DNA of 64,000 nt from a virus: the IMG/VR virus record IMGVR_UViG_3300030040_000144, positions 37,244 to 101,243 of that record; one strand, given 5' to 3'. The position numbers and the translations under genes are program-made. Below, one piece after another: positions 3,001-51,420 of the stretch. Position 1 is the stretch's first letter. Every line of letters begins with the position of its first letter. Below the pieces are notes generated by a model. The model saw nothing but the letters and a program-made list of their open reading frames with translations, searched no databases and was not told the origin of the DNA.

Positions 3001-4250
3001 CCGTTACTGCCACGCTTATAGGCGGGAAAACCATTGCCGCTACGGTAGAACTGAAGCTTTTTAACCGCATCCCCAAACTGGGAGACTGGGCTTATTATAA
3101 TGGTGAGTTCGACTCTGTGCTTTACCCCGGCAAGAGGGTGATAGGATGGGTTTACAAGGTAACTCCGTATGCCGACCTTCCTACCGAGGTGCTTAACGAG
3201 TATCTGAAGAACGAAAAGATTTCAGCGCAGTACACCGTCGGAAAAACCATGTACGAGGTACTGATAGAAAACACCGAAGAAATTACCATCACCTCGTCTG
3301 ATAACGCCAATTCGTTCCGCGAACTTCCCTGGGGAATCTATCCGCAAGACACGGGCGAAGAAGGCTTTACGTCTGATGAGTGCAAGCCTATTGCCGAAGC
3401 TCTCTCCATATCGGAGATGGACCTTAAAAACATACCTGCGCTTAAAGACTGTACGCGCCGAGGTATGTACGATGAAGAAGGCAATGAAACCGCATATATA
3501 AAAGACGCTCACGCATACGATGACAGTCAGCCCGACGGTTTTAAAGTGTATGCAGCAAACGAAGCGCCGTCGCAGTGGAACGGACTGAAAGATACCGCGT
3601 CTATAGTGGCGCACGCCAACAACATTCTGGAACACTATGTGGGTGAAGGATTGCTTACCGACAGTGAAGGCCATACCATATTTGACTATCTGCCCGCAGG
3701 CCGCACGCACATATTACCACGTAACAACAAGGAACTGGCCGATCTGTGCGTAGCGTTAGGAAACATAGGCGGTCACGACCGCTGGCGGCAGTTGGCATAT
3801 CCCGCGGCATACTCGTGTATGTTATACGAACCCGAACTGAACGGCAAGCCAATAGAAGGTTTGTCCGAATGGTTCTCCCAAGGTCATTGGTACTTGTATG
3901 GCAGTGGCGATATGGTACGTCTATATATATTTTTCCGTAACAGCCGTGCACTTGCGCCTGCCGATGCCGGTACGCCTACTGCCGAGTTCTCTGATGAGGA
4001 TAACCCTTTGCGCCCCTTAGAGCCTACCGATGCCCGCCGCCCATGCTATGCCAACCTACAGAAGCGCGCGCAGACAGCAGGTCTTAGTTGTCCCGTCAGC
4101 AATCCTGCGCAGACTAACCGCTGGAGCAGCACTGAGTTCAGCAGCTACTACAGCTGGAACAGTAACTTCAGCAGCGGCAACATCTACGGCAACCACAAGT
4201 ACTACAGGTTTAGAGTCCGTCCCGTCGTCGCTTTTCCCTTTATTCTTTAG
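1..4250 (+). CDS. DGR target protein, 5'-partial. The frame is open back to the window start, and the track ORF 201..4250 begins at an internal GTG. A large tail or surface protein with leucine-rich-repeat-like central segments and a C-terminal variable region.
   Basis: No stop in frame from nt 3 to 4250. LxxLxL-type repeats occur around aa 700-800 (LQKLSLNG, LQTLDLRG, LTTLTLDG). The last ~45 aa (NRWSSTEFSSYYSWNSNFSSGNIYGNHKYYRFRVRPVV) are a diverged copy of the TR-encoded peptide 0.95 kb downstream. Confidence 0.8.
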   Translation, partial: AQGSTANTYWWNNEQSKLDKVTYRIHVLFLTLHAEFGWKPEKSNFTDEAAAAYPLYLNGEQIQGDAVATLSEAQKEKLEIDVPDGWIDGNGMYHGQFYTPQIGGAKATKVVNKINYASPMQSHKMGATRLYNDVMKAVCKDELPDWMTSNPAARFAVHEEGYYFFNQPEGEKEPIFVGFGTFGSGKCDKATWGYDKSKMFAFEGLNNNLPLCDFRVPADEDVTYNVGDESWVYNGIKSFEYSLGKTNDDGTPVAKNDALFRRYCNFIYAHDVRMQYFRGDRAAFDARYADVYDRATAVGATDADTQMLDEMQTTKYWLRDGDEAFHLLRFNYVTGKFVDAGTWTDTDGYKAGVRDLSTDPVTKAAYEAWKASEDVGDYENLNLRFRMAIAASFNEHCGKYLNKKNHQVHYNLVNYLFAGTDNCSKNTYYTIGITTGLCWLYQDDLDTIFKTDNNGRQTKVYFLSRYFDVQDTEAGLKKQKDYEGTASALFNVMEAAWETLDPTALPANMREVLTAMCTLVGANEELDGLTTTQRQTPYGCLHKYFFSTQKYFAESAWAEQQRIRYDWPASWGYESYGNQARGVLAVTQGIGDQLESEVQYMTRRLALVCSYAAWGDFSSGVNTGSTGLVDASAGLQFTPGSGRTGGEYTFDLVPHQFIYPCGVRDRALINPHFRMIPGQHYTFTVNPASTPIPGDSSVGLAATNYYRSIGNVGNMVVGNNNFTIQGRRMTEFVAEPKPGSSAFAPKQIDVDAANLQKLSLNGVSASSGTFNLSKATRLQTLDLRGTRYGQVRMPSSPQLTVARFGAELSQLEVRDMPQLTTLTLDGYSRLTQLTVLRCGSSTLPLVRGCSDAAARLSTLRIDAVAWIDVAPAVLSYLASVPTCDIQGRIAVTDGQNVDATLKLALLRKFGDIDSESNALYVTYSLRSVTGLNITTQRFVIAEAGDYPYQCSVLPSMANNFTDLRWSVSDNDFNVTVDPLTGVLHAPAVGEESNNPTATLTVTATLIGGKTIAATVELKLFNRIPKLGDWAYYNGEFDSVLYPGKRVIGWVYKVTPYADLPTEVLNEYLKNEKISAQYTVGKTMYEVLIENTEEITITSSDNANSFRELPWGIYPQDTGEEGFTSDECKPIAEALSISEMDLKNIPALKDCTRRGMYDEEGNETAYIKDAHAYDDSQPDGFKVYAANEAPSQWNGLKDTASIVAHANNILEHYVGEGLLTDSEGHTIFDYLPAGRTHILPRNNKELADLCVALGNIGGHDRWRQLAYPAAYSCMLYEPELNGKPIEGLSEWFSQGHWYLYGSGDMVRLYIFFRNSRALAPADAGTPTAEFSDEDNPLRPLEPTDARRPCYANLQKRAQTAGLSCPVSNPAQTNRWSSTEFSSYYSWNSNFSSGNIYGNHKYYRFRVRPVVAFPFIL
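4107..4233 (+). repeat. DGR variable repeat (VR), 127 bp, at the 3' end of the target gene
   Basis: 116/127 nt identical to 5055-5181. All 11 mismatches sit where the downstream copy has A (A->C, T, T, T, T, G, T, G, G, C, T). The 3' ~40 nt (IMH-like, GC-rich ...gtccgtcccgtcgtcgct) are identical. Confidence 0.9.
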
Positions 4251-4265
4251 CCTTTTGGCGCACTC

Positions 4266-4285
4266 GGCTCGCCTTTTAGCGAGCC
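4266..4285 (+). promoter_or_regulatory. GC hairpin about 30 nt downstream of the VR, a candidate DGR homing-enhancing hairpin or cruciform
   Basis: ggctcgc-cttttа-gcgagcc: a perfect 7-bp stem with a 6-nt loop directly 3' of the VR and stop codon, the position known for DGR VR-flanking hairpins. Confidence 0.45.
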
Positions 4286-4325
4286 GCACATCACGCAAAA
4301 ACACGCATTTTTCAGTGTTTGCAAT

Positions 4326-4356
4326 AAAAAAGTACGGCGTAACCGTACTTTTTTAT
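4326..4356 (+). terminator. Rho-independent terminator after the target gene
   Basis: gtacgg-cgtaa-ccgtac stem followed by a TTTTTTATTTT run. Confidence 0.5.
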
Positions 4357-4469
4357 TTTATTTTATTATCTTTGTGTCTGTTTTAACGGATAAAAAACCC
4401 TCACGGTTTTATCCGGCAAGCTAAATTACAACACAAATTACACACAAAACACACTACGACTAAACGTAA

Positions 4470-4910
4470 ATGTCAACAAAACAATACGTCAACATAACAC
4501 AGCAGCAAATAGATAAAAGCCGCCAGTTAAAGAAAGAGAAAGTCAGGACTATTCACCAGCAGCAGGTTTTTCGTGATGCGCAGAACATATACTATGTTCT
4601 GGCGCAAGTGCGTAAAACATGCCCGGTAAAATACCGTGCAGTTATAGAACCTCTATATACGGAATGCGCAGCTCTGCTGGTAAACTTGTCTATAGCTTAT
4701 GCCGACCCCGTAGCGCGAATACCGCAGCTTACCGTAGCCGCCGCGCACACCGACGCCATAAAGACCGTTATTGGCATTATGCGTTCGTTAGGCTGCATAA
4801 GTAATGACGACTTCAAGAAAATCAAGACACTCGTCGCTTCTTGCGCCTCGCAGGTTTTAGCCTGGCGAGCATCGTCAGTGGTCAGAGTAACACAAGGTAA
4901 TGACCAATAA
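4470..4910 (+). CDS. avd: Accessory variability determinant (Avd)-like small basic protein
   Basis: 146-aa basic, helical-looking ORF located between the target gene and the TR/RT, the canonical avd position. No other match is recognisable from sequence alone. Confidence 0.55.
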   Translation: MSTKQYVNITQQQIDKSRQLKKEKVRTIHQQQVFRDAQNIYYVLAQVRKTCPVKYRAVIEPLYTECAALLVNLSIAYADPVARIPQLTVAAAHTDAIKTVIGIMRSLGCISNDDFKKIKTLVASCASQVLAWRASSVVRVTQGNDQ

Positions 4911-4922
4911 ATCAGATAGGTT

Positions 4923-6401
4923 ATGAATTGTGTTAGCGCACCACAGGAAGTTTTAAAAGGGAGGCTTACCTACATAGATGCGTACCCTACGGCGTTCCCC
5001 GCATACGGATACGGCAACTATGCTGGTTACGAAGATGCAATGCCTCAATCAGATGCGCAGACTAACCGATGGAGCAGCACTGAGAACAGCAGCAACAACA
5101 GCTGGAACAGTAACTTCAACAGCGGCAACATCAACAACAACAACAAGTACAACAGGTTTAGAGTCCGTCCCGTCGTCGCTTATGATACTCCTATAGACTT
5201 TCTCGATCTAGTACTGGAGGCTTTTTATGACTGCTGTCGTCGTAAGCGTACCAGTCAAGCGTGCATAGACTATATGCAGATAGCCAACGAAGACCTGCCC
5301 GCATTGGCGCACGAGCTGTACACCGGCACATACCAGCCTGGTGTGAGCACGTGTTTTTTGGTAAAATATCCTAAATATAGAGAGGTGTTCGCGGCTTGTT
5401 TTCGTGACAGAATCGTACATCATTTTTTATTCATTATACTCAATCCTCACTTTGAAGAAAGATTTACAAAACAAGGTAACGTGTCGTTCAATTGCCGTAA
5501 AGGTTTCGGAACACTTGCTGCGCAGCGTGCGGTAGCTAAAGCCATGCGCGAAGCAACCGACGGTTATCGCAAAAAAGCATGGATATACCGCGGCGATATA
5601 GTATCGTTCTTCATGTCTATAGACAAGCGCATCCTATGGCGCAAGCTGGAGCCGTTCATCAACACTCATTATAACGGTCCGTACCTGGCGCAGGTAATAG
5701 CTGTGGCCCGTGTAACGGTATTCCATTGCCCCGAACATAACTGCGTGTTCAATACCGACCCCGCCGAATGGAAAGACCACATAGAGACCCTGAAATCACT
5801 CTTTGGCAATACAGACCACTTCGGTATGCCTATAGGCAATCTTACCACGCAACTTTTTGTGAACTTCTTTATGTCGTTCTTCGATGAGTTTGTCATCGCG
5901 TGGTTCAGTGCCCGCGGCTATCGTGTGTACTACGTGCGTTTTGTCGATGACTTCATAGTGATATGCGTAAGCCGTACCGTGCTCAAGGTATTCGTAAAGA
6001 GCGCGCGCGTGTTCATGTATGCCGAACTCGGCATAGAGCTGCATACAGACAAGTACCACTTCCAGCCCGCCTCGCACGGGGTAATGTTTGTGGGAGCCTA
6101 TATAAAGTTCGGCCGCATATATCTGTCTAACCGTACACTGGCACGTTTTACCGAGCGCGTTTACGGTTTCAATGAATTGCTCAATAATAAAGACCAAATC
6201 ACCATAACCGACCTTTGCCGCATAGAGCAGGTAGTGAACTCCTATTTAGGCTTTTGCCGCGACAAGCGCACCTACAGCATCCGCCGCGCCATACTGTTTA
6301 CGTTCTGCCGTGCCTTTTATGAGTACTTCTACATTAAAGGCCACTATGACGGCATCCGCCTTCGCACCGCACATAAACCTATAAAAACCACCGCATCATG
6401 A
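4923..6401 (+). CDS. DGR-type reverse transcriptase. The functional start is probably downstream of the TR, around 5185-5275; the track ORF start at 4923 includes the TR in frame.
   Basis: RT motifs are present: YVRFVDDFIVI (YxDD box, ~nt 5931-5960) and IGNLTTQLF (DGR-RT-specific [I/L]GxxxSQ-like motif). The gene is about 400 aa after the TR and sits directly 3' of the TR. Confidence 0.9.
   Translation: MNCVSAPQEVLKGRLTYIDAYPTAFPAYGYGNYAGYEDAMPQSDAQTNRWSSTENSSNNSWNSNFNSGNINNNNKYNRFRVRPVVAYDTPIDFLDLVLEAFYDCCRRKRTSQACIDYMQIANEDLPALAHELYTGTYQPGVSTCFLVKYPKYREVFAACFRDRIVHHFLFIILNPHFEERFTKQGNVSFNCRKGFGTLAAQRAVAKAMREATDGYRKKAWIYRGDIVSFFMSIDKRILWRKLEPFINTHYNGPYLAQVIAVARVTVFHCPEHNCVFNTDPAEWKDHIETLKSLFGNTDHFGMPIGNLTTQLFVNFFMSFFDEFVIAWFSARGYRVYYVRFVDDFIVICVSRTVLKVFVKSARVFMYAELGIELHTDKYHFQPASHGVMFVGAYIKFGRIYLSNRTLARFTERVYGFNELLNNKDQITITDLCRIEQVVNSYLGFCRDKRTYSIRRAILFTFCRAFYEYFYIKGHYDGIRLRTAHKPIKTTAS
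5055..5181 (+). repeat. DGR template repeat (TR), 127 bp
   Basis: The invariant partner of the VR. Adenine-rich, with many AAC codons in the VR reading frame (encodes ...NSSNNSWNSNFNSGNINNNNKYN...). It lies immediately upstream of, or within the 5' extension of, the RT ORF. Confidence 0.9.
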
Positions 6402-14267: not shown

Positions 14268-14591
14268 TTAGTCTGCCGACACGCTGGCGTTAATCTTCGC
14301 TCCGCACGTGGGGCATACCGTCTGTATATTGAACTGGACGGGAGTCTTTACCTGATCTTCTTCGGGGAACAGCTGGGTTATCTTGACACCAAGCGCATCA
14401 GCTATTTCGTACAGGTTGCTAAGCGTGGGGTTTCCGTTTATACGTAAACTCAAGGCGCCCGGTGTAACTGTGCGTACGTTATTATCTTTATCTGTTCTGG
14501 TTATTTTTGCCGCAAGGTCTGAAAGCGTCATGCCTTTTTGACGCATTATTTCCGCAATGCGCAGTCTGTTCTTTTTTATTTCTGTAGCCAT
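14268..14591 (-). CDS. XRE-family HTH regulator with C-terminal VCPTCG motif
   Basis: N-terminal HTH (GMTLSDLAAKI...) and a C-terminal ...TVCPTCGAKI motif. Divergent from the small protein and nuclease operon. Confidence 0.55.
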   Translation of the reverse strand: MATEIKKNRLRIAEIMRQKGMTLSDLAAKITRTDKDNNVRTVTPGALSLRINGNPTLSNLYEIADALGVKITQLFPEEDQVKTPVQFNIQTVCPTCGAKINASVSAD

Positions 14592-14800
14592 AGGTTTATA
14601 GTATTATCAAAATGTTGCACAAATATAAATATAATATTGTTAAACCAAAACATATTTAGTGGAATTAGTTTTATTTTTAGTTTTTGCTATATTTTTATTT
14701 GCATATTTAAAGTTATATCATTAGTTTTGCGCCGTGCTTTTGCATAGAACGCTAAAAACACGTGTTGCGTTGATTCAATAACTCTTAATATTATTTAAAA

Positions 14801-14986
14801 ATGAGACAAACAAAAGTAACCATTGAGTTAGGAAAAGAAGATTTGCGGCTTGCCGCCACATCAGTTATCGAGTATTTAACATTATACCCACCTTTTAGCG
14901 AAGAACGCAGTGTAGGATTCGATATGGGTGTACAGCTCCTTTTTGATGTCTTGAAATCCACTTTTAAGGATAACGGAAAGGAGTAG
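14801..14986 (+). CDS. Small conserved protein, paralog of 22192..22374
   Basis: 61 aa. It shares the K-V-TI...IEY-TL-PP core with the ORF at 22192. It ends 4 nt before the nuclease gene. Confidence 0.35.
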   Translation: MRQTKVTIELGKEDLRLAATSVIEYLTLYPPFSEERSVGFDMGVQLLFDVLKSTFKDNGKE

Positions 14987-14989
14987 TGT

Positions 14990-16516
14990 ATGGAGAAATA
15001 TGAGTTATCCGAAGCAAAAATAAATGCCGTAAAGAATATTCTGTGCGACAAAATTTCTTTGGAGTGCAGTTGTCTTACAAGTGTAGAACGTGTTCATTTA
15101 ATTCTTGCGTCTTGCGCTTATGTAAATAACCCTAAATCCTTGATTTCTTCAAAACGTTTACATGGAATTATGGATGTTTTACACTTTAGACACCATCGTT
15201 TCCGTGCTCATCGTATGCGCTACTTTTACGAGCTGATAAAGAACATTGCTGCTGAAGGCGAAAACATTTATCCAGAACGATTGCAAACTTTAAAAGTCGC
15301 AGAACTTGTCAAAGAGGGATTGAGCGAAGACCCGAGCGTATCTTCTATTTCCGACGAGATAAACGAGTATAAGAGCCAAGTTGATATTATGAAGAAGAGA
15401 TATTCCGACTTGGTTGAAGACCTGATAGAAGTACAACGCAAGGAATCTGATGAATACTTTGCAAACAAGAAGCCTTATGTACAAAGACATGACCGCAGAT
15501 TTGCCTTTGACGCGAGAAACCAACCTTACACGAACGAGGAGTTTATAGAAAAGCTCCGTGCGGTGTATGGTGATGATTATGACTATTCAGATGTGAATTA
15601 TACAAATAACCGAACCGCAATAAGGTTAAAGTGTAAAAAGCATGGCGATGTATTTGAACGCTTGCCATTGAACTTGCTGAAGGGATGGGGTTGTCCTTCC
15701 TGCAATAAGGAGCAGGGAAAGACATGGGCAAATACTATTGCGTGCTCTTACGATCCACAGCAACGCAGTGTGCGTTGGAATACAAAACGCTTCATTGCAG
15801 AGTCGAAAGCTCGTTTTGGCGATGATGTTTTTGATTACTCCCAATGCGTTTACAAGAACAACGACACTCCCGTTACTCTTATACACAAACACAGTGGAAA
15901 AGTCTTTTCGGTCTGGCCTTATGAACATTTGCGACATGATGAATGTTACTATGGAGAACGCCGCTACTATCAAGGCACTACGGATGCAGAAAAAATCCAC
16001 TTCATCGTTAAACGTATTAGAGAGAACGTGAACCATAAAGTATATGTACCGATGCAGCATATTGAAGATTCTTGGAAAACCATTAAGTGTATATGTCCTG
16101 TTCATGGTGTGTTTTATACCAATCTGGCGCGTATATATAATGGAGTGTGTTGTCCTGAATGTCAAATGCCGGCAGGCGAAAGCCTTGGAGAGCGTAATGT
16201 CCGCAAATACCTTACGAGCAAAGGAATAGTTTTCTTGCAGGAATACCGTATTGAAGATAAAGGATATTTTGAGAACTTCGCGCGTGTTGATTTCTATCTG
16301 CCCGAACATAACGTTTTCATAGAGTTCCAAGGTGAGCAGCATTATGGCATAGGCAATGAGGAGTTGTCGCACGGACGAAAGACATTCAAAGAGCAAAAGA
16401 AGCGTGATGATAGTTTGCGGAAATACGCTTTTGACAAACGTATTGAACTGATTGAAGTTCCGTTCTTTTTTCGTAATCACGTTAAAGACTATTTGGATAA
16501 GTATTTTGTTGTCTGA
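14990..16516 (+). CDS. Protein with triple zinc-ribbon-like repeats and a C-terminal Vsr/DUF559-like PD-(D/E)xK nuclease domain. A putative homing-endonuclease-like or defence nuclease.
   Basis: Three ~80-aa repeats each carry a Cys/His cluster (...GWGCPSCN, ...HDECYYGE, ...GVCCPECQ). The C-terminus VDFYLPEHNVFIEFQGEQHYG matches the D-x(n)-IE-x-G-xx-H pattern of Vsr/DUF559-type endonucleases. Confidence 0.45.
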   Translation: MEKYELSEAKINAVKNILCDKISLECSCLTSVERVHLILASCAYVNNPKSLISSKRLHGIMDVLHFRHHRFRAHRMRYFYELIKNIAAEGENIYPERLQTLKVAELVKEGLSEDPSVSSISDEINEYKSQVDIMKKRYSDLVEDLIEVQRKESDEYFANKKPYVQRHDRRFAFDARNQPYTNEEFIEKLRAVYGDDYDYSDVNYTNNRTAIRLKCKKHGDVFERLPLNLLKGWGCPSCNKEQGKTWANTIACSYDPQQRSVRWNTKRFIAESKARFGDDVFDYSQCVYKNNDTPVTLIHKHSGKVFSVWPYEHLRHDECYYGERRYYQGTTDAEKIHFIVKRIRENVNHKVYVPMQHIEDSWKTIKCICPVHGVFYTNLARIYNGVCCPECQMPAGESLGERNVRKYLTSKGIVFLQEYRIEDKGYFENFARVDFYLPEHNVFIEFQGEQHYGIGNEELSHGRKTFKEQKKRDDSLRKYAFDKRIELIEVPFFFRNHVKDYLDKYFVV

Positions 16517-16540
16517 CAGCATGAGGTAGGGCAGAACCTT

Positions 16541-16984
16541 CTACCCTACCCCATTCTTCTCCTCGGCATATCGCGGAATGTTGGTTACGAGGAAGGCGGT
16601 GGCGCAGTTGGGGCATACCAACACCTTGTGTGCGTCTTGCGGAGTCTGTGCGAATAGCGGGCCTAAGCGTTCGCGCTCGGCATACTCCTTCAGCTTCTCA
16701 AAGCTCACCTTCGGCTCTTCGATGATGGTGCCGTCTTGAGCCATGCGATAGAAGAAGTCGCGGGGGTCAACGTCTATTGCCCAGGCTATCTTGTAGATGG
16801 TGGAGATTGTAGGGTTGCCCGATGTCATTTGCGACACGGCTGCCTTTGTCACGCCCAGTCGTTCTGCCACTTGCTGAGTGGTGAATCCCTTGCGATGAAC
16901 GGTCTCCATAATGTTCAGTTCGGTAACGGGAGCGTATGGCTGCACCACCTTGCGCCCATCTTTCTTTATCTCGATGTCTACCAT
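16541..16984 (-). CDS. XRE-family HTH regulator with C-terminal VCPNC motif
   Basis: HTH (TTQQVAERLGVTKAAVSQM) and a C-terminal LVCPNCATAF motif. Confidence 0.55.
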   Translation of the reverse strand: MVDIEIKKDGRKVVQPYAPVTELNIMETVHRKGFTTQQVAERLGVTKAAVSQMTSGNPTISTIYKIAWAIDVDPRDFFYRMAQDGTIIEEPKVSFEKLKEYAERERLGPLFAQTPQDAHKVLVCPNCATAFLVTNIPRYAEEKNGVG

Positions 16985-17456: not shown

Positions 17457-17488
17457 TTTGGTAAAAGGTAGAAAAATTACTACTTTTG
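17457..17488 (+). promoter_or_regulatory. Bacteroides-type promoter (-33 TTTG / -7 TActTTTG) for hicAB
   Basis: TTTG sits 21 nt upstream of TACTTTTG, about 30 nt before the hicA start. Confidence 0.4.
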
Positions 17489-17518
17489 CAAAGTCAAACA
17501 AATAAAACGTATAAAACA

Positions 17519-17698
17519 ATGAAGTACAAAGAATTTCACAAGAGAATCAAGGCTAAGGGCTGGAAGTTCAGCCACGCCGAAGGCTCACACTACTTTTACA
17601 CCAAGGGCGGCAAGCTCTCGCCGCCTGTCCCATACCATGGAGCCAAGGAGATCCCCGAACGGCTCCGCCGGAGCATAGCGCAAGCAATGGGCATATAA
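17519..17698 (+). CDS. hicA: HicA-family toxin (mRNA interferase)
   Basis: 59 aa: MKYKEFHKRIKAKGWKFSHAEGSHYFYTKGGK. It matches the HicA K..E..K.L...GW......GSH..Y signature. Confidence 0.7.
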   Translation: MKYKEFHKRIKAKGWKFSHAEGSHYFYTKGGKLSPPVPYHGAKEIPERLRRSIAQAMGI

Positions 17699-17765: not shown

Positions 17766-18173
17766 ATGGTAAATGAAATTATAATGCTTATTTCAGCAAG
17801 TGCCGACAGTTTCGGCGCATGCTCTGAGAACTGCCCCGGCATCTGGGCGGCTGGTGATACCGTGGAAGCGTGCAAAGCCGACGCCGTACGAGCTATTGAA
17901 CTAATAAAAAAGAACATGCCGCGCGAGGACTGGCCCGAACCTTTAAAGGCTAAAGAATATACTATAACATGGCAATATGATATAGAAAGCTTTTTACTTT
18001 TCTTTGGTAGCTTCATTTCGCTAGCCGGTATGGAGCGTATAACGGGCATAAATCAAAAACAATTATGGGCCTATATGCACGGGCGCAAAAAGCCACGACA
18101 GGCACAGAAAGAAAAGATAATAAACGCTTTGCACCGTTTCGCCCATGACTTGGCGGCGGCTGTTATACTTTAG
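17766..18173 (+). CDS. hicB: HicB-family antitoxin
   Basis: The N-terminal PG...G.T.EA......AIEL segment is HicB-like. The C-terminus is HTH-like (ITGINQKQLWAYMHGRKKP). It lies directly downstream of hicA. Confidence 0.6.
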   Translation: MVNEIIMLISASADSFGACSENCPGIWAAGDTVEACKADAVRAIELIKKNMPREDWPEPLKAKEYTITWQYDIESFLLFFGSFISLAGMERITGINQKQLWAYMHGRKKPRQAQKEKIINALHRFAHDLAAAVIL

Positions 18174-18622: not shown

Positions 18623-18913
18623 TTATTCTTCGCTTTTGGATAAATTAACGTGCAAAGGCTTTCCGCAATGAGGACAGACAAGCCGCACGCCTCGCCCCTC
18701 CTGCTGCGTGTTTGCTGCAACCTCTTCAGGGCTGGCGAATAGTTGCCACATCGGTATATTAAGCACGGCCGCCCACTTCTCTAACGTGGGATAAGATGGC
18801 GTTTTAATCTGCTGATATAAACCGACCGGAGAGATACCGAGCAGGGCGGCGAACTCCTTTTGTGTGATATTGCGTTCTTTTAGTATTTGCTTTATCCTGT
18901 TCATCTGTAACAA
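18623..18913 (-). CDS. XRE-family HTH regulator with C-terminal VCPHCG motif
   Basis: HTH ITQKEFAALLGISPVGLYQ and a C-terminal RLVCPHCGKPLH motif. The third member of the HTH+VCPxC set. Confidence 0.55.
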   Translation of the reverse strand: MLQMNRIKQILKERNITQKEFAALLGISPVGLYQQIKTPSYPTLEKWAAVLNIPMWQLFASPEEVAANTQQEGRGVRLVCPHCGKPLHVNLSKSEE

Positions 18914-22191: not shown

Positions 22192-22374
22192 ATGGAAGAA
22201 AAAACAGTAATTACAATCGACATGGACAAAGCAAGCCTCCGTGAGGCAATGACACGAATCATAGAGTATATCACACTTACCCCTCCCAATCCCGACGAGT
22301 TCGGCAACAAGGAGCTCGTAGAGTACAACCTGGGTCTCAACGCGCTATTCTCCTGCCTACGTCAGACGTATTGA
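22192..22374 (+). CDS. Small conserved protein, paralog of 14801..14986
   Basis: 60 aa, ...RIIEYITLTPPNPDEF..., homologous to the ORF at 14801. Confidence 0.35.
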   Translation: MEEKTVITIDMDKASLREAMTRIIEYITLTPPNPDEFGNKELVEYNLGLNALFSCLRQTY

Positions 22375-26183: not shown

Positions 26184-27053
26184 ATGGAAGAAAAACTTAA
26201 AGAAGTGCTCGCCTTCGTGAATCACAAAGGCGGAGTAGGTAAGACAACAACAGTGCAGAGCCTTGCAGCCGGGCTAAGAACTTTCGGCAAAGGTCAGTTC
26301 GGTAAAGATAAAGACGGCAACGACCGCATCCCCCGCGTACTTATAATAGACCTCGATCCGCAAGCGTGTGTTTCGTTTCTCTCCGGTTGGAGTGAAACAA
26401 AGAACGTGGGCAAACCCACCATGTACGATGCGCTGGTGCAGCAAAGTCAGATGCCGGTGTATAAGGTAAACGAAGGTATATACCTGGCTCCGGCTTCGAG
26501 CCGACTGATAGGTATAGAGCCGTTCCTCAATCAGATGGCAGTCCCCAGAAAGGCGTTGTGTAAGCTGCTGGCTAAACCATTAATGGAAATGGAAGGTACG
26601 GAGCTGCACGATGAAGGCACTTTTAATGTGAACGAGGCGTTCGACTACGTGCTGATAGACTGTCCTCCTGCCATGTCGCTTCTTACATACAACGCACTTA
26701 CAGCGGCTACCAGTGTGGTACTGCCAGTGCAACTTGAAATGCTCGCTACAAAAGGTATAGCCGAGATTATCAATGCCGTAAAAGAAACTCGCGAAGACCT
26801 GAATCCCGACCTCGACATCAGAGGCTTGCTTATGGTCATGAGCAACGATCAAACCAAGGCTACCAAGCAGTTCAAAGAATATCTGGGAGACAAATTTGGT
26901 GATTATATGTTCGACTCTTATACTCGCCGTGACACCAAGATGGTAGAAGCCCAGGCTATGAACGAAGATATATTTTCTTACGCCCCACAGAGCAGGGTAG
27001 GCGAGGACTATGAAAATTTTACTAAAGAAATCATGGCTAGTATGCCACAATGA
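26184..27053 (+). CDS. parA: ParA/Soj-family partition ATPase
   Basis: Deviant Walker A VNHKGGVGKTTT near the N-terminus. 289 aa. Confidence 0.85.
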   Translation: MEEKLKEVLAFVNHKGGVGKTTTVQSLAAGLRTFGKGQFGKDKDGNDRIPRVLIIDLDPQACVSFLSGWSETKNVGKPTMYDALVQQSQMPVYKVNEGIYLAPASSRLIGIEPFLNQMAVPRKALCKLLAKPLMEMEGTELHDEGTFNVNEAFDYVLIDCPPAMSLLTYNALTAATSVVLPVQLEMLATKGIAEIINAVKETREDLNPDLDIRGLLMVMSNDQTKATKQFKEYLGDKFGDYMFDSYTRRDTKMVEAQAMNEDIFSYAPQSRVGEDYENFTKEIMASMPQ

Positions 27054-31742: not shown

Positions 31743-32984
31743 ATGTTACGAACATACAAATATAGAATATATCCGACAGATGAGCAGAAGGTCTTGTTCG
31801 CAAAGACTTTCGGCTGTTGCCGCTTTGTCTATAATTGGGCTTTGAACATGAAAATCACAGCATACAAGGAGCGCAAGGAAACTCTTGGCAACGTGTATCT
31901 GACCAACTTGATGAAGAAGGAACTGAAGAGGGAATACGAATGGCTCACGGAGGTTAATTCACAGTCGTTGCAGAGCGCATTGCGCAATCTTGATACGGCT
32001 TACACAAACTTTTTCCGCAACACGAAAGGCGTTGGTTTCCCCCGTTACAAGTCGCGCAAGGACAGGCAGAGTTTTCTATGTCCCCAACATAGCCGTGTCG
32101 ATTTTTCCAAACACACAATAACCATACCAAAAGCAAAAGACATACCCGCAGTTTTGCACCGCAAGTTCAATGGTACAGTGAAGACTGTTACTATAAGCAT
32201 GACACCTTCGGGCAGATACTTTGCTTCTGTTCTTGTGGATACGGATATACAGGAAATCCCAAAGTCGGCAACGAACTCCAGTACAACCATTGGCATTGAC
32301 CTTGGCGTCAAGACTTTGGCAGTATGCTCCGACGGACGGACCTTTGACAATCCCAAGAACTTGCGCAAAGGTCAGAACCGCCTTGCGCTGTTGCAAAAGC
32401 GTCTGAGCCGTAGGCAGAAAGGCTCTTCAAACAGGAACAAGGCTCGCATAAAGGTCGCCCGTTTGCAAGAACGCATATCCAACCAACGTAAGGACAACCT
32501 TCACAAAATTACCCATACACTCACGCACGACAGCCAAGTGCGTACCATCTGCATGGAGGATTTGAATGTGAAAGGCATGACACGCAATCACCATTTGGCT
32601 CAGTCAGTGGCCGACGCTTCCTTTGGCATGTTCCTTACGATGTTGGAATACAAGTGCAAGTGGTATGGTGTGAATTTGGTAAAGATAGACCGTTTTGCCC
32701 CAAGCTCGAAGACTTGTGGCAAATGCGGCTATGTGTACAAAGGATTGAAGTTGAGCGAGCGCAGTTGGGAGTGTTCCGTTTGTGGAACACGCCACGACCG
32801 CGACTATAACGCAGCTTGCAATATCAAAGAGTTTGGCTTGAAAGCCCTACCCACGGAACGTGGGAAAGTAAAGCCTGTGGACTGCCCTCTTGTGGATGGC
32901 CGACCTCGTGTCCTAAAAAGCAATGGCAGGAAGAAGCAGGAAAAGCGAGGAGGTGCAGTATCTCCGAAGCCGCTAAGTCTTTAG
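31743..32984 (+). CDS. tnpB: TnpB (IS605 OrfB; RNA-guided RuvC-like nuclease)
   Basis: 413 aa. C-terminal CGKCGYVY...CSVCG zinc finger and a RuvC-like DNACNI segment. Its 3' end abuts the right-end hairpin, where an omega-RNA would be encoded. Confidence 0.85.
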   Translation: MLRTYKYRIYPTDEQKVLFAKTFGCCRFVYNWALNMKITAYKERKETLGNVYLTNLMKKELKREYEWLTEVNSQSLQSALRNLDTAYTNFFRNTKGVGFPRYKSRKDRQSFLCPQHSRVDFSKHTITIPKAKDIPAVLHRKFNGTVKTVTISMTPSGRYFASVLVDTDIQEIPKSATNSSTTIGIDLGVKTLAVCSDGRTFDNPKNLRKGQNRLALLQKRLSRRQKGSSNRNKARIKVARLQERISNQRKDNLHKITHTLTHDSQVRTICMEDLNVKGMTRNHHLAQSVADASFGMFLTMLEYKCKWYGVNLVKIDRFAPSSKTCGKCGYVYKGLKLSERSWECSVCGTRHDRDYNAACNIKEFGLKALPTERGKVKPVDCPLVDGRPRVLKSNGRKKQEKRGGAVSPKPLSL

Positions 32985-35444: not shown

Positions 35445-38400
35445 ATGCTCTTTCACCCTATAATCAATCAGTTAGCCAATATAGACCTTACCTATTTGGT
35501 AAAGCCTGCTGATGAGCAGCACATTGAAGGACAGACGGCTTGTTTCTGTCCGTTTTGCTCAAAGAGTGCCGAAATATACGGTAGGGCTAAGAGTATGCAG
35601 ACTCCGCATTTCATTATATACAACAATGAACGTGGCGGTTTATATAATGGAGTAGGAGTAGACGATGACCGTTTGGCTATACATGGTGCGGTACACTGGA
35701 AGTGCACCGTAACCGGAAAACAGGGGTATGGGGCTATAGAACTATATGCCGCCATCCATGATATTCCCCCGTTCGGGGCTAACCTACTGCGTATATGCCG
35801 TGCGCTTACGGTAATGAAATATGGCGATACCGACGAGGTACATGCCGCTTTTCCTGAAGTGTTCGCACCGATGGACTACCGTACATGCGCAAATCAGACC
35901 ATTGGCACGTTTCTGTTTCAGCCCAAGACCGACTTCTCGCCGCAAGAACTTGCGGCACTTGGTTGCGAGGTTACACTTCAGAAAGGTTTGCCGGTGTTCG
36001 GCTTCGGCAGCGATTTCAGTACAAAGATGCTGAACGACGATTTCCGTATATTCTCACTCCTGAATGTGACACTGCCGGATGTTCTGCGCGACGGGCAGCA
36101 TGTAAGCGAGGTAATTCACGGCACACCGTGGAATCCGCTTTTTGTTTGTTTCGCTTCTGACGAGACCGGACCGCAAGGTTCTTACGGATGTATTTTCCGC
36201 CCCGCGATAACTGCCGACCCCATTGTTTTTTCTACCGACGAAGAGCATAGCGTGCGCAAGGTGAGCAAGTGGCTCATGGGAGACAATGTATTTGTCTACG
36301 CCATGAATCACCGCGGAACCGGCAATACCGCCGTACATGCTGCTATACAGCGTTTCTGTCCCGACGAGGAATATACCATCACCAAGGAAGAGTGGGTGGA
36401 AAAAGAAGACAAGGACGGAAACCCCAAAGGCACTTTCAAGATGATAGAAACCGAGATACCGGCAGCTGAAATCAAGGCACGGAACATCGTTTTCTGCCGC
36501 ACCCCTGAGGATGCTCTTAGCGTGTACTATGCCATGCGCAGCCTGCGCCTTGACAAGAGTGATGTCGACGAGCACTTTGCGCATCACTGCTGGTATCACG
36601 TGGCTTTCGCCCTGGGTAGACGCAATTTTTGGTATATAGAGCGCGGGGAATGGCGACAGGAAAAACTCGACTTTAGCGGAGTGCAGTTTCAGAAGATGAA
36701 ACGCTTTGCGGAACGTGTAATCATGCTTTACCCAAATGATATAGCCAGCCAGCGTGATTGCGGCTCTATTGTAACCAAGTTTACGGAGCTGCATTATGCC
36801 ATGCTTCCTGAAGCTTTTCATTGCGCCTACTGTAAGCGTTGGAAATGGCTTTACGGCGGCACACCAAGGTCGGTAAGAGACTATATGTTATCGTACCGCA
36901 TGACTGTTGATGATAACTTCCGTTTCGATCACGACATACGCATACCGCTTTACTCGCGTCTGCGCGGAGCGAAAGATGCCGATCCGTTCGAGATAGAATA
37001 CCCTCGCGACCCCCGAAGCGGTAAGCCTAAAGCGCCCACATGCAAGGTGTCGCCTACTAAGGTATGGCTCTTTATGACCGCACACGGTTATTACCGCATG
37101 ATAGACCCCGAGAGTACCGACCTTGTAGGACAGTTCATCCACCTCGACCGTTGTTTTGTAGAGTATATAGATGCAAAGAGTATCATGCAGGCGGTAAAAA
37201 CTCTGCTCATGCAGTACATAGAGCAGAGCTGGCGACACTCTGACAATGAGCGCCGCCTGATGTCGGACTGCGCGAACCTTATAGACAAGACATTCACGGA
37301 AAAATCGGCTGGCGGCTTGCAGGGCATGGTAATAAACTTTGCCGATGCCTTTAATGCGAAGACGGAATATTTTTACTTCCGCAACGTAGCACTAAAGATA
37401 ACGCCCGACAGCATCCGCGCCGTGTCTTACGATGATATAAACTTCTTCATCCCGTCTCTCGCCAAGAAACCGTACGATTTTACCATGCGTCAGTTCAAAA
37501 CGCCGTTCGCCATTTTTGAGCGACCGGAGTACCGTGAGCGTCTTGATGCGATAAACAAGAAAGAGGCGATGAGAAACGAAGACGGATCTCCGGCTTATTC
37601 TTACGACGAGATTAAGCAACTGCGCGGCGAGCTTATGGAGTGGGCCCAGACTTACCGTTGGGATGTGGATTGGTTTGGCCAGAGCGAACAAGACCTTTGG
37701 CCGATACTGCGTATAGTGCGTGGCTTCTCTAATGTGTTGTGGGAACGCGAGAAAGAGGCGCAGCGAAACAAAGAACCTCTTACTGCCGAAGAGAAAGCCA
37801 TAATGAATGCGCACTTTGCCAATATGCTTTCATGTATAGGCCGCTTGTGCTTTCGCTCATGGGAAGGAATGCAGAATATTGCTCCCTATCTGCTTGAAGA
37901 CAACATAGCCGATGAAAAACAAGCAGCGGGAGGTAGCGGAAAATCGGTGTTGGTAAATACCGTGGTAGGTGCGGCGGTGAATGTACTATCAGTAGACATG
38001 AAAGATTTCATGATAGTAACCGATGCAAAATTTTCATTGACAGACCTTTTGCTTTATCCTGGCAAATACCGCGTGGTACATTGGGAAGATAAACAGAAGA
38101 GCTTTCCTATGAACTACTTCTACAATAAGGTCACTAAAGGGACCAAGGTTGAAAAAAAGTTTGGTGACCCGATAAATCTGAAGATGAACGAATCACCTAT
38201 TCACGCGATAACGAGTAATAGCCCGTTGAGCGATGACGACCCGTCTACGTTAGGCCGTTTTCCGTTGGTAAGTTTCTCCGACCGCTTTGCGCGAGAGAAT
38301 CAGCAGAAAAGACAACCTGCGCGTTCGCCGGCAGAACTGATGAAGCATTTCGATCCAAACCCTGAAAAGCTTACCGATACCGATCGCAATCAGGCTATTT

Positions 38401-49625: not shown

Positions 49626-51420
49626 CGTTGTGATAAGAGGGCACTGAAAAAGTAATCACTATTCAGAGTTCTCTGAGGATTATATGAAAAATATAGAGTT
49701 CGTCAACTCCTTATCCGAGGACTTGACGAACTCTGATTTTTATCGATAGGTAGGTTATATGACTCTGTATTGACTCTAATCAGCCATGTGCAGCCTTATT
49801 CTGGGATAATGATGAGCAGTCCTCAGCTCAGTTTGAGGATTCTTTTTATATTTGCAACAAAAATCACCATTGCCCCTTGCATACGCATACAGTCCAGACC
49901 ATACGAGTCTGCACGGTCGTATCCAAATACATTCTTCAATTCTGCGTTTTTGGCCTCGATTTTATATCGGATTTTAGCCTTTGTCTTGAACTCCTCTGTT
50001 TGTTCAAAGTCGGCTTGCTGCAGATGCTCTCCCGATTTAATCTGCACGGCATAAGACTTGCTTTTGGCCCCTTCTTTATAACATCCGTTCCGCCGTGAAC
50101 ATGTTCTGCATTTCTCTACATCAAAGTAGAAGACAAGTGACTGGTTCTGTTTCTCTCCCTTCTTTCCCTGTCGCGCTTTTCTTATCGCCATATGCCCGGC
50201 CGGACAAACATACATTCCGGCATCCTTGTTATAATCAAAACGGTCTTCTTCCTTACGCGTGCCATTGCTGATTGTCGGATTTAATCTGGCAACCAGCTCA
50301 AAACCATTTTCTTTGTCATTTGAAAGTATTATGTTGTCTTTGCCCGAGTACGCAGTGTCGCCGACTACTGTATCAACGACCATGCCGTTGGTGCGGCTCT
50401 GCTCTACAAGTTCCTGAAGCTGGGGGCCGTCCCCTTTCTCTCCGGAGGTGACTGTCGCAGCCGTTATGATGCGTTCATCACTCATTGCGATATGGGTCTT
50501 ATATCCGAAGAAAGAGGCATCCTTACTCTTGTGCCCAATCCTGGCATCCTCGTCCTTGGACGTTACATAATGGTCTTCAATATCTGAAAGTACCTCCTTA
50601 AGCATGTTAAGACGCTCCTTGATTTTAGGAACTTCTGCAAGACAGGGATTGGAACCTACGACATTCAGCAGATTTTTGGTGTAGTCAAGCTCATGTTCCA
50701 GATTATCATCCGTGTTCTTTTCAGGAAGAGTATTTTTGATAGTCTCGTCTGATTCATACAGACATTTGCGCAACTGTTTTGAGCGAAGCCGCAATATCTC
50801 AACCGGGGAATAAGGATTGCTTCGTGAGCCGGTGTGGGTGGCATCAACGATTATAGTACGTGATTTGATTATTCCTTTTTCAATTGCAATCTCAACGGTT
50901 TTGCCAATCAGAAGATTCAACAGGGCCTTGTCTTTTAGTCTAAGCTTACGGAACTTACACAGAGAACTGGGATTTATCAGGTCCGTGTTTTCTGGACTCA
51001 TCCCAAGAAAATACTTGAAAGACATATCATAACGGGACCTCTCTACAACATCAACATCGGATATGTCATAAATTGTCTTCAGAAGAAGATATTTGAACAT
51101 CATTACAGGGCTTTCAGCCATGCGGCCATTGTCATGGCAGTATTTATCCATAAGTTCTTTTTGGATGAAGGAGAAGTCCACAAGGTCATTAATCCTGCGC
51201 AGAACATTATCGCTAGGAATAATCAAATCGTATAAATCACTGTAATTGCTGAATTGTATTGTCTGTTGAGTCGGGAGCATTTCTTTGTGTGTTATATCTA
51301 TAAAGATACGCAAAAATCGGCATATATCCAAAATGTTTATTGGGTATATGCCGATTATATCAGACAATTATCCTATGAAAGGACTTTTTCAGTGCCCTCT
51401 TGTGATAACGTCCGTTTTTT
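49626..51420. mobile_element. IS1182/IS5-like insertion sequence
   Basis: Terminal inverted repeats of ~38 bp: aaaaaacgg[c/a]cgtt[g/a]t[g/c]a[t/c]aagagggcactgaaaaagt at 49626-49663, and its reverse complement at 51383-51420. They bracket a single DDE transposase gene. Confidence 0.7.
49823..51367 (-). CDS. DDE transposase (IS1182/IS5-like family)
   Basis: 514 aa. N-terminal ...DLVDFSFIQKELMDKYCHDNGRMAESPVMMFKYLLLKTIYDISD... is typical of IS1182-type transposases. Confidence 0.7.
   Translation of the reverse strand: MSDIIGIYPINILDICRFLRIFIDITHKEMLPTQQTIQFSNYSDLYDLIIPSDNVLRRINDLVDFSFIQKELMDKYCHDNGRMAESPVMMFKYLLLKTIYDISDVDVVERSRYDMSFKYFLGMSPENTDLINPSSLCKFRKLRLKDKALLNLLIGKTVEIAIEKGIIKSRTIIVDATHTGSRSNPYSPVEILRLRSKQLRKCLYESDETIKNTLPEKNTDDNLEHELDYTKNLLNVVGSNPCLAEVPKIKERLNMLKEVLSDIEDHYVTSKDEDARIGHKSKDASFFGYKTHIAMSDERIITAATVTSGEKGDGPQLQELVEQSRTNGMVVDTVVGDTAYSGKDNIILSNDKENGFELVARLNPTISNGTRKEEDRFDYNKDAGMYVCPAGHMAIRKARQGKKGEKQNQSLVFYFDVEKCRTCSRRNGCYKEGAKSKSYAVQIKSGEHLQQADFEQTEEFKTKAKIRYKIEAKNAELKNVFGYDRADSYGLDCMRMQGAMVIFVANIKRILKLS

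Follow-up and report, generated by a model that had tools for sequence, protein, structure and literature searches.

The sequence examined here (the window) is a stretch of 64,000 nucleotides covering positions 37,244 to 101,243 of the IMG/VR virus record IMGVR_UViG_3300030040_000144, which derives from a ~100-kb human-gut phage. We investigated a pair of co-oriented genes within it, encoding a 61-amino acid (aa) protein, p61, and a 508-aa nuclease. They lie between two genes for XRE-type helix-turn-helix (HTH) proteins, HTH107 and HTH147 (Table 1). An earlier note on this DNA had described the locus as a nuclease island, and all of the open reading frames (ORFs) listed for that island are present. 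The evidence presented below indicates that the region 14592-16540 is probably a free-standing cassette encoding a homing endonuclease, which has been inserted between the two resident XRE-type genes.

Table 1. Features of the nuclease locus and related features of the window (window coordinates).
Feature	Coordinates	Strand	Description
HTH107	14268-14591	-	XRE-type HTH; left flank; Pfam HTH_3, 28.3 bits
Divergent intergenic region	14592-14800	.	Predicted promoters: HTH107 leftward, p61-nuclease operon rightward
p61	14801-14986	+	61-aa ORF; conserved small companion gene
508-aa nuclease ORF	14990-16516	+	ATG 3 nt past the p61 stop
Nuclease aa 1-175	14990-15514	+	Clade-specific helical N-terminal domain
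Nuclease aa 178-395	15521-16174	+	Three CapR/DUF723-like repeats
Nuclease aa 396-508 and stop codon	16175-16516	+	Vsr-like (EDxHD) PD-(D/E)xK domain
24-bp spacer between convergent stop codons	16517-16540	.	Right end of cassette
HTH147	16541-16984	-	XRE-type HTH; right flank; Pfam HTH_3, 31.3 bits
HicA	17486-17698		Pfam, 41.8 bits (cutoff 27)
HicB-like ORF	17766-18173		
p61 paralog	22192-22374	+	60 aa, 40% identical to p61; from tblastn and the ORF list

Domain architecture and family of the nuclease

The C-terminal domain of the nuclease (aa 396-508) has a Vsr-like PD-(D/E)xK fold, as the earlier note had anticipated from a Vsr/DUF559-like pattern, and its VDFYLP...IEFQGEQH motif is invariant across the family. 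Conservation was assessed in an alignment of 37 full-length relatives of the nuclease sharing 45-94% identity. Missing catalytic residues, which had been named as a possible flaw in the nuclease assignment, were not seen: E401, D434, H451, and D473 are invariant in all 37 clade members, while position 447 is Q or N. In a wider set of 31 sequences, D434, E445, H451, and D473 show no variation, and at least 90% of the sequences conserve E401. The catalytic candidates are E401, D434, (E445), Q447, H451, and D473, and judging from a hidden Markov model alignment and the spacing of the motifs they appear equivalent to those of I-Bth0305I, the best PDB match of the domain profile, albeit with a marginal E-value of 0.06. 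A composite E-D-x-H-D motif defines this homing-endonuclease family (PMC3239194). The Q of IEFQGEQH (Q447), a D in DUF559, would occupy the variable x position and hence is not expected to be a catalytic defect, and the motif as a whole is intact in the 508-aa protein. The ratio of nonsynonymous to synonymous substitution rates (dN/dS) is ~0.1 in all three regions of the nuclease, and the gene is under purifying selection.

Two other assignments of this domain were rejected. The phrog_559 label would make the protein an HNH endonuclease, but there was no Pfam HNH match in the 508-aa protein at E ≤ 0.1 and the catalytic domain folds as a Vsr-like PD-(D/E)xK enzyme. The HNH name is therefore an annotation of some phrog_559 members rather than a property of this protein. 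A Vsr/DUF559 enzyme of the repair type is chromosomal and consists of a single domain of ~100-160 aa, whereas this is a multidomain protein of 508 aa in a mobile phage cassette, and only the fold is common to both. Similarly, E. coli Vsr and the DUF559-type NGO0050 (PDB 3HRL) are single-domain proteins of repair or unknown function that lack DNA-binding repeats.

Such repeats occupy the middle of the 508-aa protein, at aa 178-245, 262-330, and 331-395. An AlphaFold2 model (mean pLDDT 75.7) has a helix-strand-strand-helix unit that occurs three times in aa 178-395, and repeats 1 and 2 are related by direct comparison (BLASTP E = 1e-9). Repeat 3 was undetected by direct BLAST against repeat 1; it is tied to repeat 1 through a Staphylococcus phage homolog with a repeat that aligns to both, and its secondary structure and ligand spacing match those of the other repeats. 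The earlier description of three repeats, each with its own Cys/His cluster, thus holds for the repeats themselves but not for all of the clusters. In the 37-relative alignment the CxxH...CPxC ligands are invariant in repeat 1 (C215/H218/C235/C238) and repeat 3 (C369/H372/C388/C391), whereas the Cys and His of the repeat 2 string HDECYYGE are not conserved in homologs. The protein therefore contains two zinc ribbons and one degenerate middle repeat. Pfam DUF723 scored just below threshold on the window protein (19.6 bits, cutoff 20.9), all of the homologs have a precomputed PF05265 (DUF723) assignment, and PHROGs 681 and 4605 match aa 176-242. Zinc-finger DNA-binding repeats of the CapR/DUF723/DUF4397 type occur in phage homing endonucleases (PMC10448857), and we infer that aa 178-395 serve as a DNA-recognition module.

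The N-terminal region (aa 1-175) is less easily placed. According to the AlphaFold2 secondary structure it is a helical bundle with a long helix at aa 117-158, and a comparison with Pfam returned nothing beyond coiled-coil noise. A profile search of 5.8 billion proteins recovered no other architecture containing it, only fragments of the same gene, and the region was matched by 4 of the best 150 among 28,087 related clusters. Its dN/dS is 0.11-0.14.

The number of related clusters found for the nuclease at E ≤ 1e-3, 28,087, shows that it belongs to a large family. The PHROG matches include phrog_559 (2e-48) as well as PHROGs named "homing endonuclease" and "intron encoded nuclease", and tblastn found 745 phage records with relatives 25-32% identical across aa ~180-508, among them "VSR homing endonuclease" genes within introns of Staphylococcus phage terminase genes. 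One of these, from the terminase intron of Staphylococcus phage Quidividi, is 28% identical (E = 3e-22). NCBIfam gave no match for either the nuclease or p61. A 2025 paper describes proteins with three to five CapR-like domains and an EDxHD/Vsr-like domain as a large outgroup of EDxHD/Vsr homing endonucleases (PMC12350094). By its domain content and residues, the 508-aa protein belongs to this class of phage enzymes: aa 178-508 consist of three zinc-ribbon repeats of ~60-80 aa followed by a Vsr-like domain of ~110 aa, and the invariant D/E/H/D residues are held in common. The domain combination, which the earlier note could not assign to a described system, is thus already described and common, and aa 1-175 and p61 are the sole unexplained features.

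Several differences from the closest known systems should be considered. The CapR-like/EDxHD enzymes of PMC12350094 are borne by group I/II introns, whereas the window gene is free-standing and intergenic, and its product differs from that class in having a 175-aa N-terminal helical domain, a small gene upstream, and a middle repeat without zinc ligands. I-Bth0305I, the EDxHD prototype (PDB 3R3P), likewise combines the E-D-x-H-D motif with a DNA-binding region N-terminal to the nuclease; however, that region has NUMOD/HTH-like motifs rather than zinc-ribbon repeats, and the enzyme is encoded in a recA intron (PMC3239194). The GIY-YIG-related T5orf172 homing endonucleases of ICP1 and other phages are free-standing and have a zinc-finger repeat module, as here, although the catalytic domain in our case is Vsr-like PD-(D/E)xK (PMC10448857). 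Hef too is described as a phage homing endonuclease that is free-standing and of Vsr-like descent, although its hosts and phage types are unrelated to ours. Work by Sandegren et al. in 2005 is said to show Hef replacing other homing genes at a shared locus. Hef is found in T-even phages and is a member of the Vsr-like family (PMC3239194).

Occupied, empty, and swapped alleles of the site

An unbiased sample of related loci was obtained by retrieving 14 IMG/VR loci through HTH147, independently of the nuclease. The site is empty in seven of these; HTH147 and HTH107 are adjacent in six of them (~165-220 bp apart) and the seventh also lacks HTH107. Four loci, falling into two clades (90% and 52% identity), carry p61 and a nuclease of the 508-aa type. 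The other three (L105, L106, and L107; e.g., L106 4472-5962, - strand) carry p61 together with a different, 496-aa nuclease that has five CapR-like zinc-ribbon repeats and a Vsr domain, lacks the N-terminal helical domain, and is 25-35% identical. In another sample, retrieved through a neighboring marker gene (a 681-aa LPD29 protein), none of the informative loci carry the nuclease. The accessory, moron-like status proposed in the earlier note, which had suggested examining presence and absence among related phages, is borne out by this polymorphism.

The ends of the variable segment could be located by comparing alleles. Relative to the empty alleles, homology to the window begins at 16540, at the HTH147 stop. 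Relative to the alleles with the 496-aa nuclease, homology extends from HTH107 across the intergenic region and p61 as far as 14992, and restarts at 16518. The exchange of the 508-aa for the 496-aa gene is thus an ORF-for-ORF swap with boundaries at the start and stop codons, and p61 is kept at the site even where the nuclease ORF has been swapped. One empty allele (L110) retains the cassette promoter and a post-nuclease spacer of the type seen in L006, the two directly abutting. The cassette also occurs elsewhere: in six further loci (L034-L039), p61 and the nuclease are the only genes within ±6 kb in common with the window, and they are again divergent from an HTH/CPxC gene. A 71-bp tandem array of 4.5 copies, 98% identical, was observed directly 3′ of the nuclease in one of these (L034 7781-8103, 45% clade).

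Decay and mosaicism were also evident. In a 101-kb relative (L101; ERZ1304728 NODE_134), a frameshift at about codon 90 divides the nuclease gene (3459-4975) into 99-aa and 377-aa products, and the split products are recorded on 2-3 contigs. This is the closest relative on the left flank, with HTH107 and p61 98-99% identical to those of the window. In L030 the nuclease is 90% identical (synonymous divergence, dS, 0.5) but p61 only 62% (dS 1.7), while L101 has the reverse pattern, and in general divergence is discordant among p61, the nuclease, and the flanks. Divergence that is discordant on either side of the ORF is a feature shared with the T5orf172 enzymes found at genetic-exchange boundaries (PMC10448857). 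A search around the cassette revealed neither terminal repeats like those of transposons nor duplicated target sites, and no intron RNA (Rfam) was found at the nuclease locus; because of the latter we describe the gene as free-standing. This pattern of occupancy, empty sites, swapping, decay, and spread is the signature expected of a free-standing homing endonuclease at a genetic-exchange boundary (cf. PMC10448857).

The same comparisons bear on the role of the flanking genes, which the earlier note had taken to bracket the module. Its reading of both as HTH proteins with a VCPxC motif is correct: both pass the Pfam HTH_3 cutoff of 23, and the C-terminal motif is VCPTCG in HTH107 and CPNC, near the C-terminus, in HTH147. 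However, HTH107 adjoins HTH147 without a nuclease in L016/L109, L102-104, L110, and L115. Because the two genes are adjacent in relatives lacking the cassette, they are resident neighbors that define the insertion site and not cassette components. HTH147 is 98-99% identical in phages with an empty site (L102, L103, and L115), no HTH147 polymorphism separating occupied from empty alleles (a target-site signature) was found, and the gene is mosaic among relatives, its alleles being shuffled whatever the occupancy. Both proteins are members of an XRE-type family ending in CPxC(G), which was seen at 14268-14591, 16541-16984, and 18623-18913 of the window and at 4616-5317 of L034. These proteins have two Cys per chain, such that a zinc site, if present, would need to be formed between subunits. 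A gene of this family is divergent from the nuclease cassette in every context, unrelated ones included.

One could alternatively propose a core phage function under the control of the flanking repressors, such as host-DNA degradation or a component of a lysis-lysogeny switch. A role of this kind would fit the divergent arrangement of the nuclease and an XRE-type gene in every context seen, L008 and L034 included, and the conservation of its position in several diverged phages. However, half of the closest relatives lack the gene and simply have the two HTH genes side by side, the gene is pseudogenized in L101, and a different nuclease can replace it. We consider a core function highly improbable.

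The p61 companion gene and the genomic setting

The p61 family comprises 346 proteins of ~60 aa that are confined to these phages and have no Pfam domain. The protein is confidently predicted to consist of an extended N-terminal segment and a two-helix hairpin, and it is under purifying selection (dN/dS 0.05-0.29). In three nuclease clades its gene immediately precedes that of the nuclease, and it also precedes the gene of the 496-aa alternative. In L001 and L004, which lack p61, the nuclease ATG takes the place of the p61 ATG behind a common promoter and 5′ untranslated region, and p61 appears to be co-transcribed with the nuclease from the cassette's own promoter. Altogether, L001-5 and L008-9 have the nuclease but not p61, with p61 precisely lost in L001, L004, and L008, and the p61-less nucleases show purifying selection (dN/dS 0.11). 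The stand-alone p61 paralog of the window lies in an early-gene region, away from the nuclease, and has equivalents in L001 (20527-20706) and L017 (14609-14779). Each genome thus seems to have a "core" copy of p61 besides the nuclease-linked one. A relationship between p61 and the N-terminal domain of the nuclease was tried and rejected, the hhalign probability being 0.06.

The earlier note had offered three possibilities for this locus, a toxin, a defense module, or a homing endonuclease, with p61 as a possible antitoxin or immunity partner. The third agrees best with our results. A toxin-antitoxin, abortive-infection, or defense module in which p61 restrains a nuclease toxin would be in keeping with the position of a small gene 3 nt upstream of the nuclease ATG, with the conservation of the pair in different contexts, and with the presence of p61 beside the second type of nuclease. 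Yet the nuclease remains intact and under purifying selection where p61 has been precisely lost, the p61 paralog stands alone elsewhere, and p61 has no ribbon-helix-helix, HTH, or known antitoxin fold and no match in Pfam or PADLOC. Moreover, type II toxins are typically far smaller than 508 aa, and the repeats of the nuclease are typical of homing enzymes. The defense variant of this idea could draw on weak PD-(D/E)xK matches in PADLOC (E ~1e-3), but the only matches in PADLOC-DB were to the domain-level profiles PDC-S69 and HEAT_CxxC_PD-DEXK (E 6e-4 to 8e-4, aa 398-473), and no defense family was recovered beyond them. We therefore attach very little credence to such a module. Thus p61 is a genuine and conserved gene that accompanies the nuclease, but because it is dispensable and has a paralog elsewhere, it does not qualify as an obligate antitoxin. 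It could regulate or modulate the nuclease, or be cargo that hitch-hikes with it.

A more specific proposal treats p61 and the nuclease as the two components of one mobile unit, p61 being an accessory factor dedicated to Vsr-type homing endonucleases. Such a factor could act as a brake on expression, as an inhibitor shielding the carrier genome, or as a helper docking on the N-terminal domain. No accessory protein of this kind is described for this endonuclease class in PMC10448857, PMC3239194, or PMC12350094, and we put the idea forward only tentatively, as a rather doubtful one.

Upstream of p61 there is a candidate -7 box of the Bacteroidota type at 14722-14729: TAGTTTTG. The relatives have the following at the aligned place: TTACCTTTGCAGCGCAA. 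TAnnTTTG is the published -7 consensus of Bacteroides promoters, and by this consensus the box is a putative promoter element of the p61-nuclease operon. A similar string beside the HTH147 stop in L016 was discarded, as it is merely the 3′ end of HTH147 itself. Where the cassette ends on the right and the convergent genes meet, the HTH147 stop codon is spanned by an inverted repeat, GGTAGGG/CCCTACC (16525-16531 and 16544-16550), and alleles of the L006/L032/L110 type have another hairpin, GCGAAGC...GCTTCGC, in its place. The hairpin at this stop codon may be a bidirectional terminator.

The hicAB genes downstream, of which HicA passes its Pfam threshold as had been proposed, are a separate variable cassette: they are present in the window, L001, L010, L014, L015, L031, and L101, and absent from L004, L006, L011, and L016. 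The 14-19 kb stretch is a hotspot in which plus-strand accessory cassettes alternate with minus-strand XRE genes. The neighboring genes also include one for a DUF5675 protein, at a place where relatives have a lysozyme or an amidase.

Near-identical or identical proteins are carried by viral contigs of 90-105 kb. The host is probably Prevotella or another member of the Bacteroidota; a truncated homolog (P0008) has the NCBI label Prevotella. A scan of GTDB genomes found a full-length nuclease homolog on one 3-kb contig only, and blastn of the region against GenBank phages gave no match. Other features of the window were recorded in passing. The region 4470-6401, situated between very large ORFs of 1349 and 1166 aa, looks like a diversity-generating retroelement: it encodes a reverse transcriptase (4923-6401; PHROG 1423, 3e-60), ahead of which lies a 146-aa ORF in the place that a bAvd (PF22296) gene occupies in L001. 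A partition ATPase of the ParA/AAA_31 type is encoded at 26184-27053 (+; 1.4e-35). Along with hicAB and several genes resembling repressors, it hints that a plasmid-like prophage may be the form in which the ~100-kb element is maintained. Two transposase genes, at 31743-32984 (+; phrog_506, 3.6e-137) and 49823-51367 (-; phrog_8928/3598), are probably insertion sequence elements within the phage genome.

The homing interpretation and its alternatives

If the cassette is a homing endonuclease, its spread would proceed as follows. During co-infection, the zinc-ribbon repeats would position the Vsr-like domain on an allele without the cassette, at the HTH107/HTH147 junction or close to it. This domain would then cut that allele, probably as a dimer by analogy with I-Bth0305I (PMC3239194), and recombinational repair from the cassette-bearing genome would copy p61, the nuclease, and some flanking DNA. 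Repair of this kind would account for the match between the exchange boundaries and the two ends of the nuclease ORF.

Several observations weigh against this interpretation. The comparison of alleles pointed to no cleavage site or target, and since no HTH147 polymorphism separates occupied from empty alleles, disruption of the junction is the only explanation available for the self-protection of the carrier. The closest relatives are called homing endonucleases by annotation and not by biochemistry, and the resemblance to I-Bth0305I is structural, being marginal at the sequence level. Both aa 1-175 and p61 are absent from described homing endonucleases and could have another or an additional role. 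Finally, ordinary recombination in a hypervariable accessory region would also give presence/absence polymorphism and mosaicism, and the neighboring hicAB genes are likewise variable.

Some of these points, along with others, could be accommodated by a domesticated weapon derived from a homing endonuclease that no longer homes but cuts the DNA of a competitor (a phage, satellite, or plasmid), as ICP1 Odn does, with p61 and the N-terminus providing control or targeting. All domains, the clade-specific N-terminus among them, are under purifying selection; the gene sits beside hicAB in an accessory/regulatory hotspot; the neighboring gene shows no evident target; and there are documented cases of homing-endonuclease domains being co-opted in conflicts between phages and satellites (PMC10448857). 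Nevertheless, 50% occupancy, clean empty sites, ORF-precise replacement, and a frameshifted allele constitute a classic selfish homing signature, and no candidate competitor element was seen. A weapon is thus an unlikely explanation, and we favor the free-standing homing-endonuclease cassette.

Reclassifying a possible "nuclease island" or new defense system as an ordinary selfish element prevents a false lead. The locus further provides a natural data set of occupied, empty, and alternative-nuclease alleles at one intergenic site in uncultured gut phages, with breakpoints resolved to start and stop codons, for the recently recognized CapR-like/Vsr homing endonucleases. Arrays of zinc-ribbon repeats, as modular units of DNA recognition, have practical interest as well. 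Should p61 or the private N-terminal domain turn out to be functional, homing-endonuclease biology would gain a further level of regulation.

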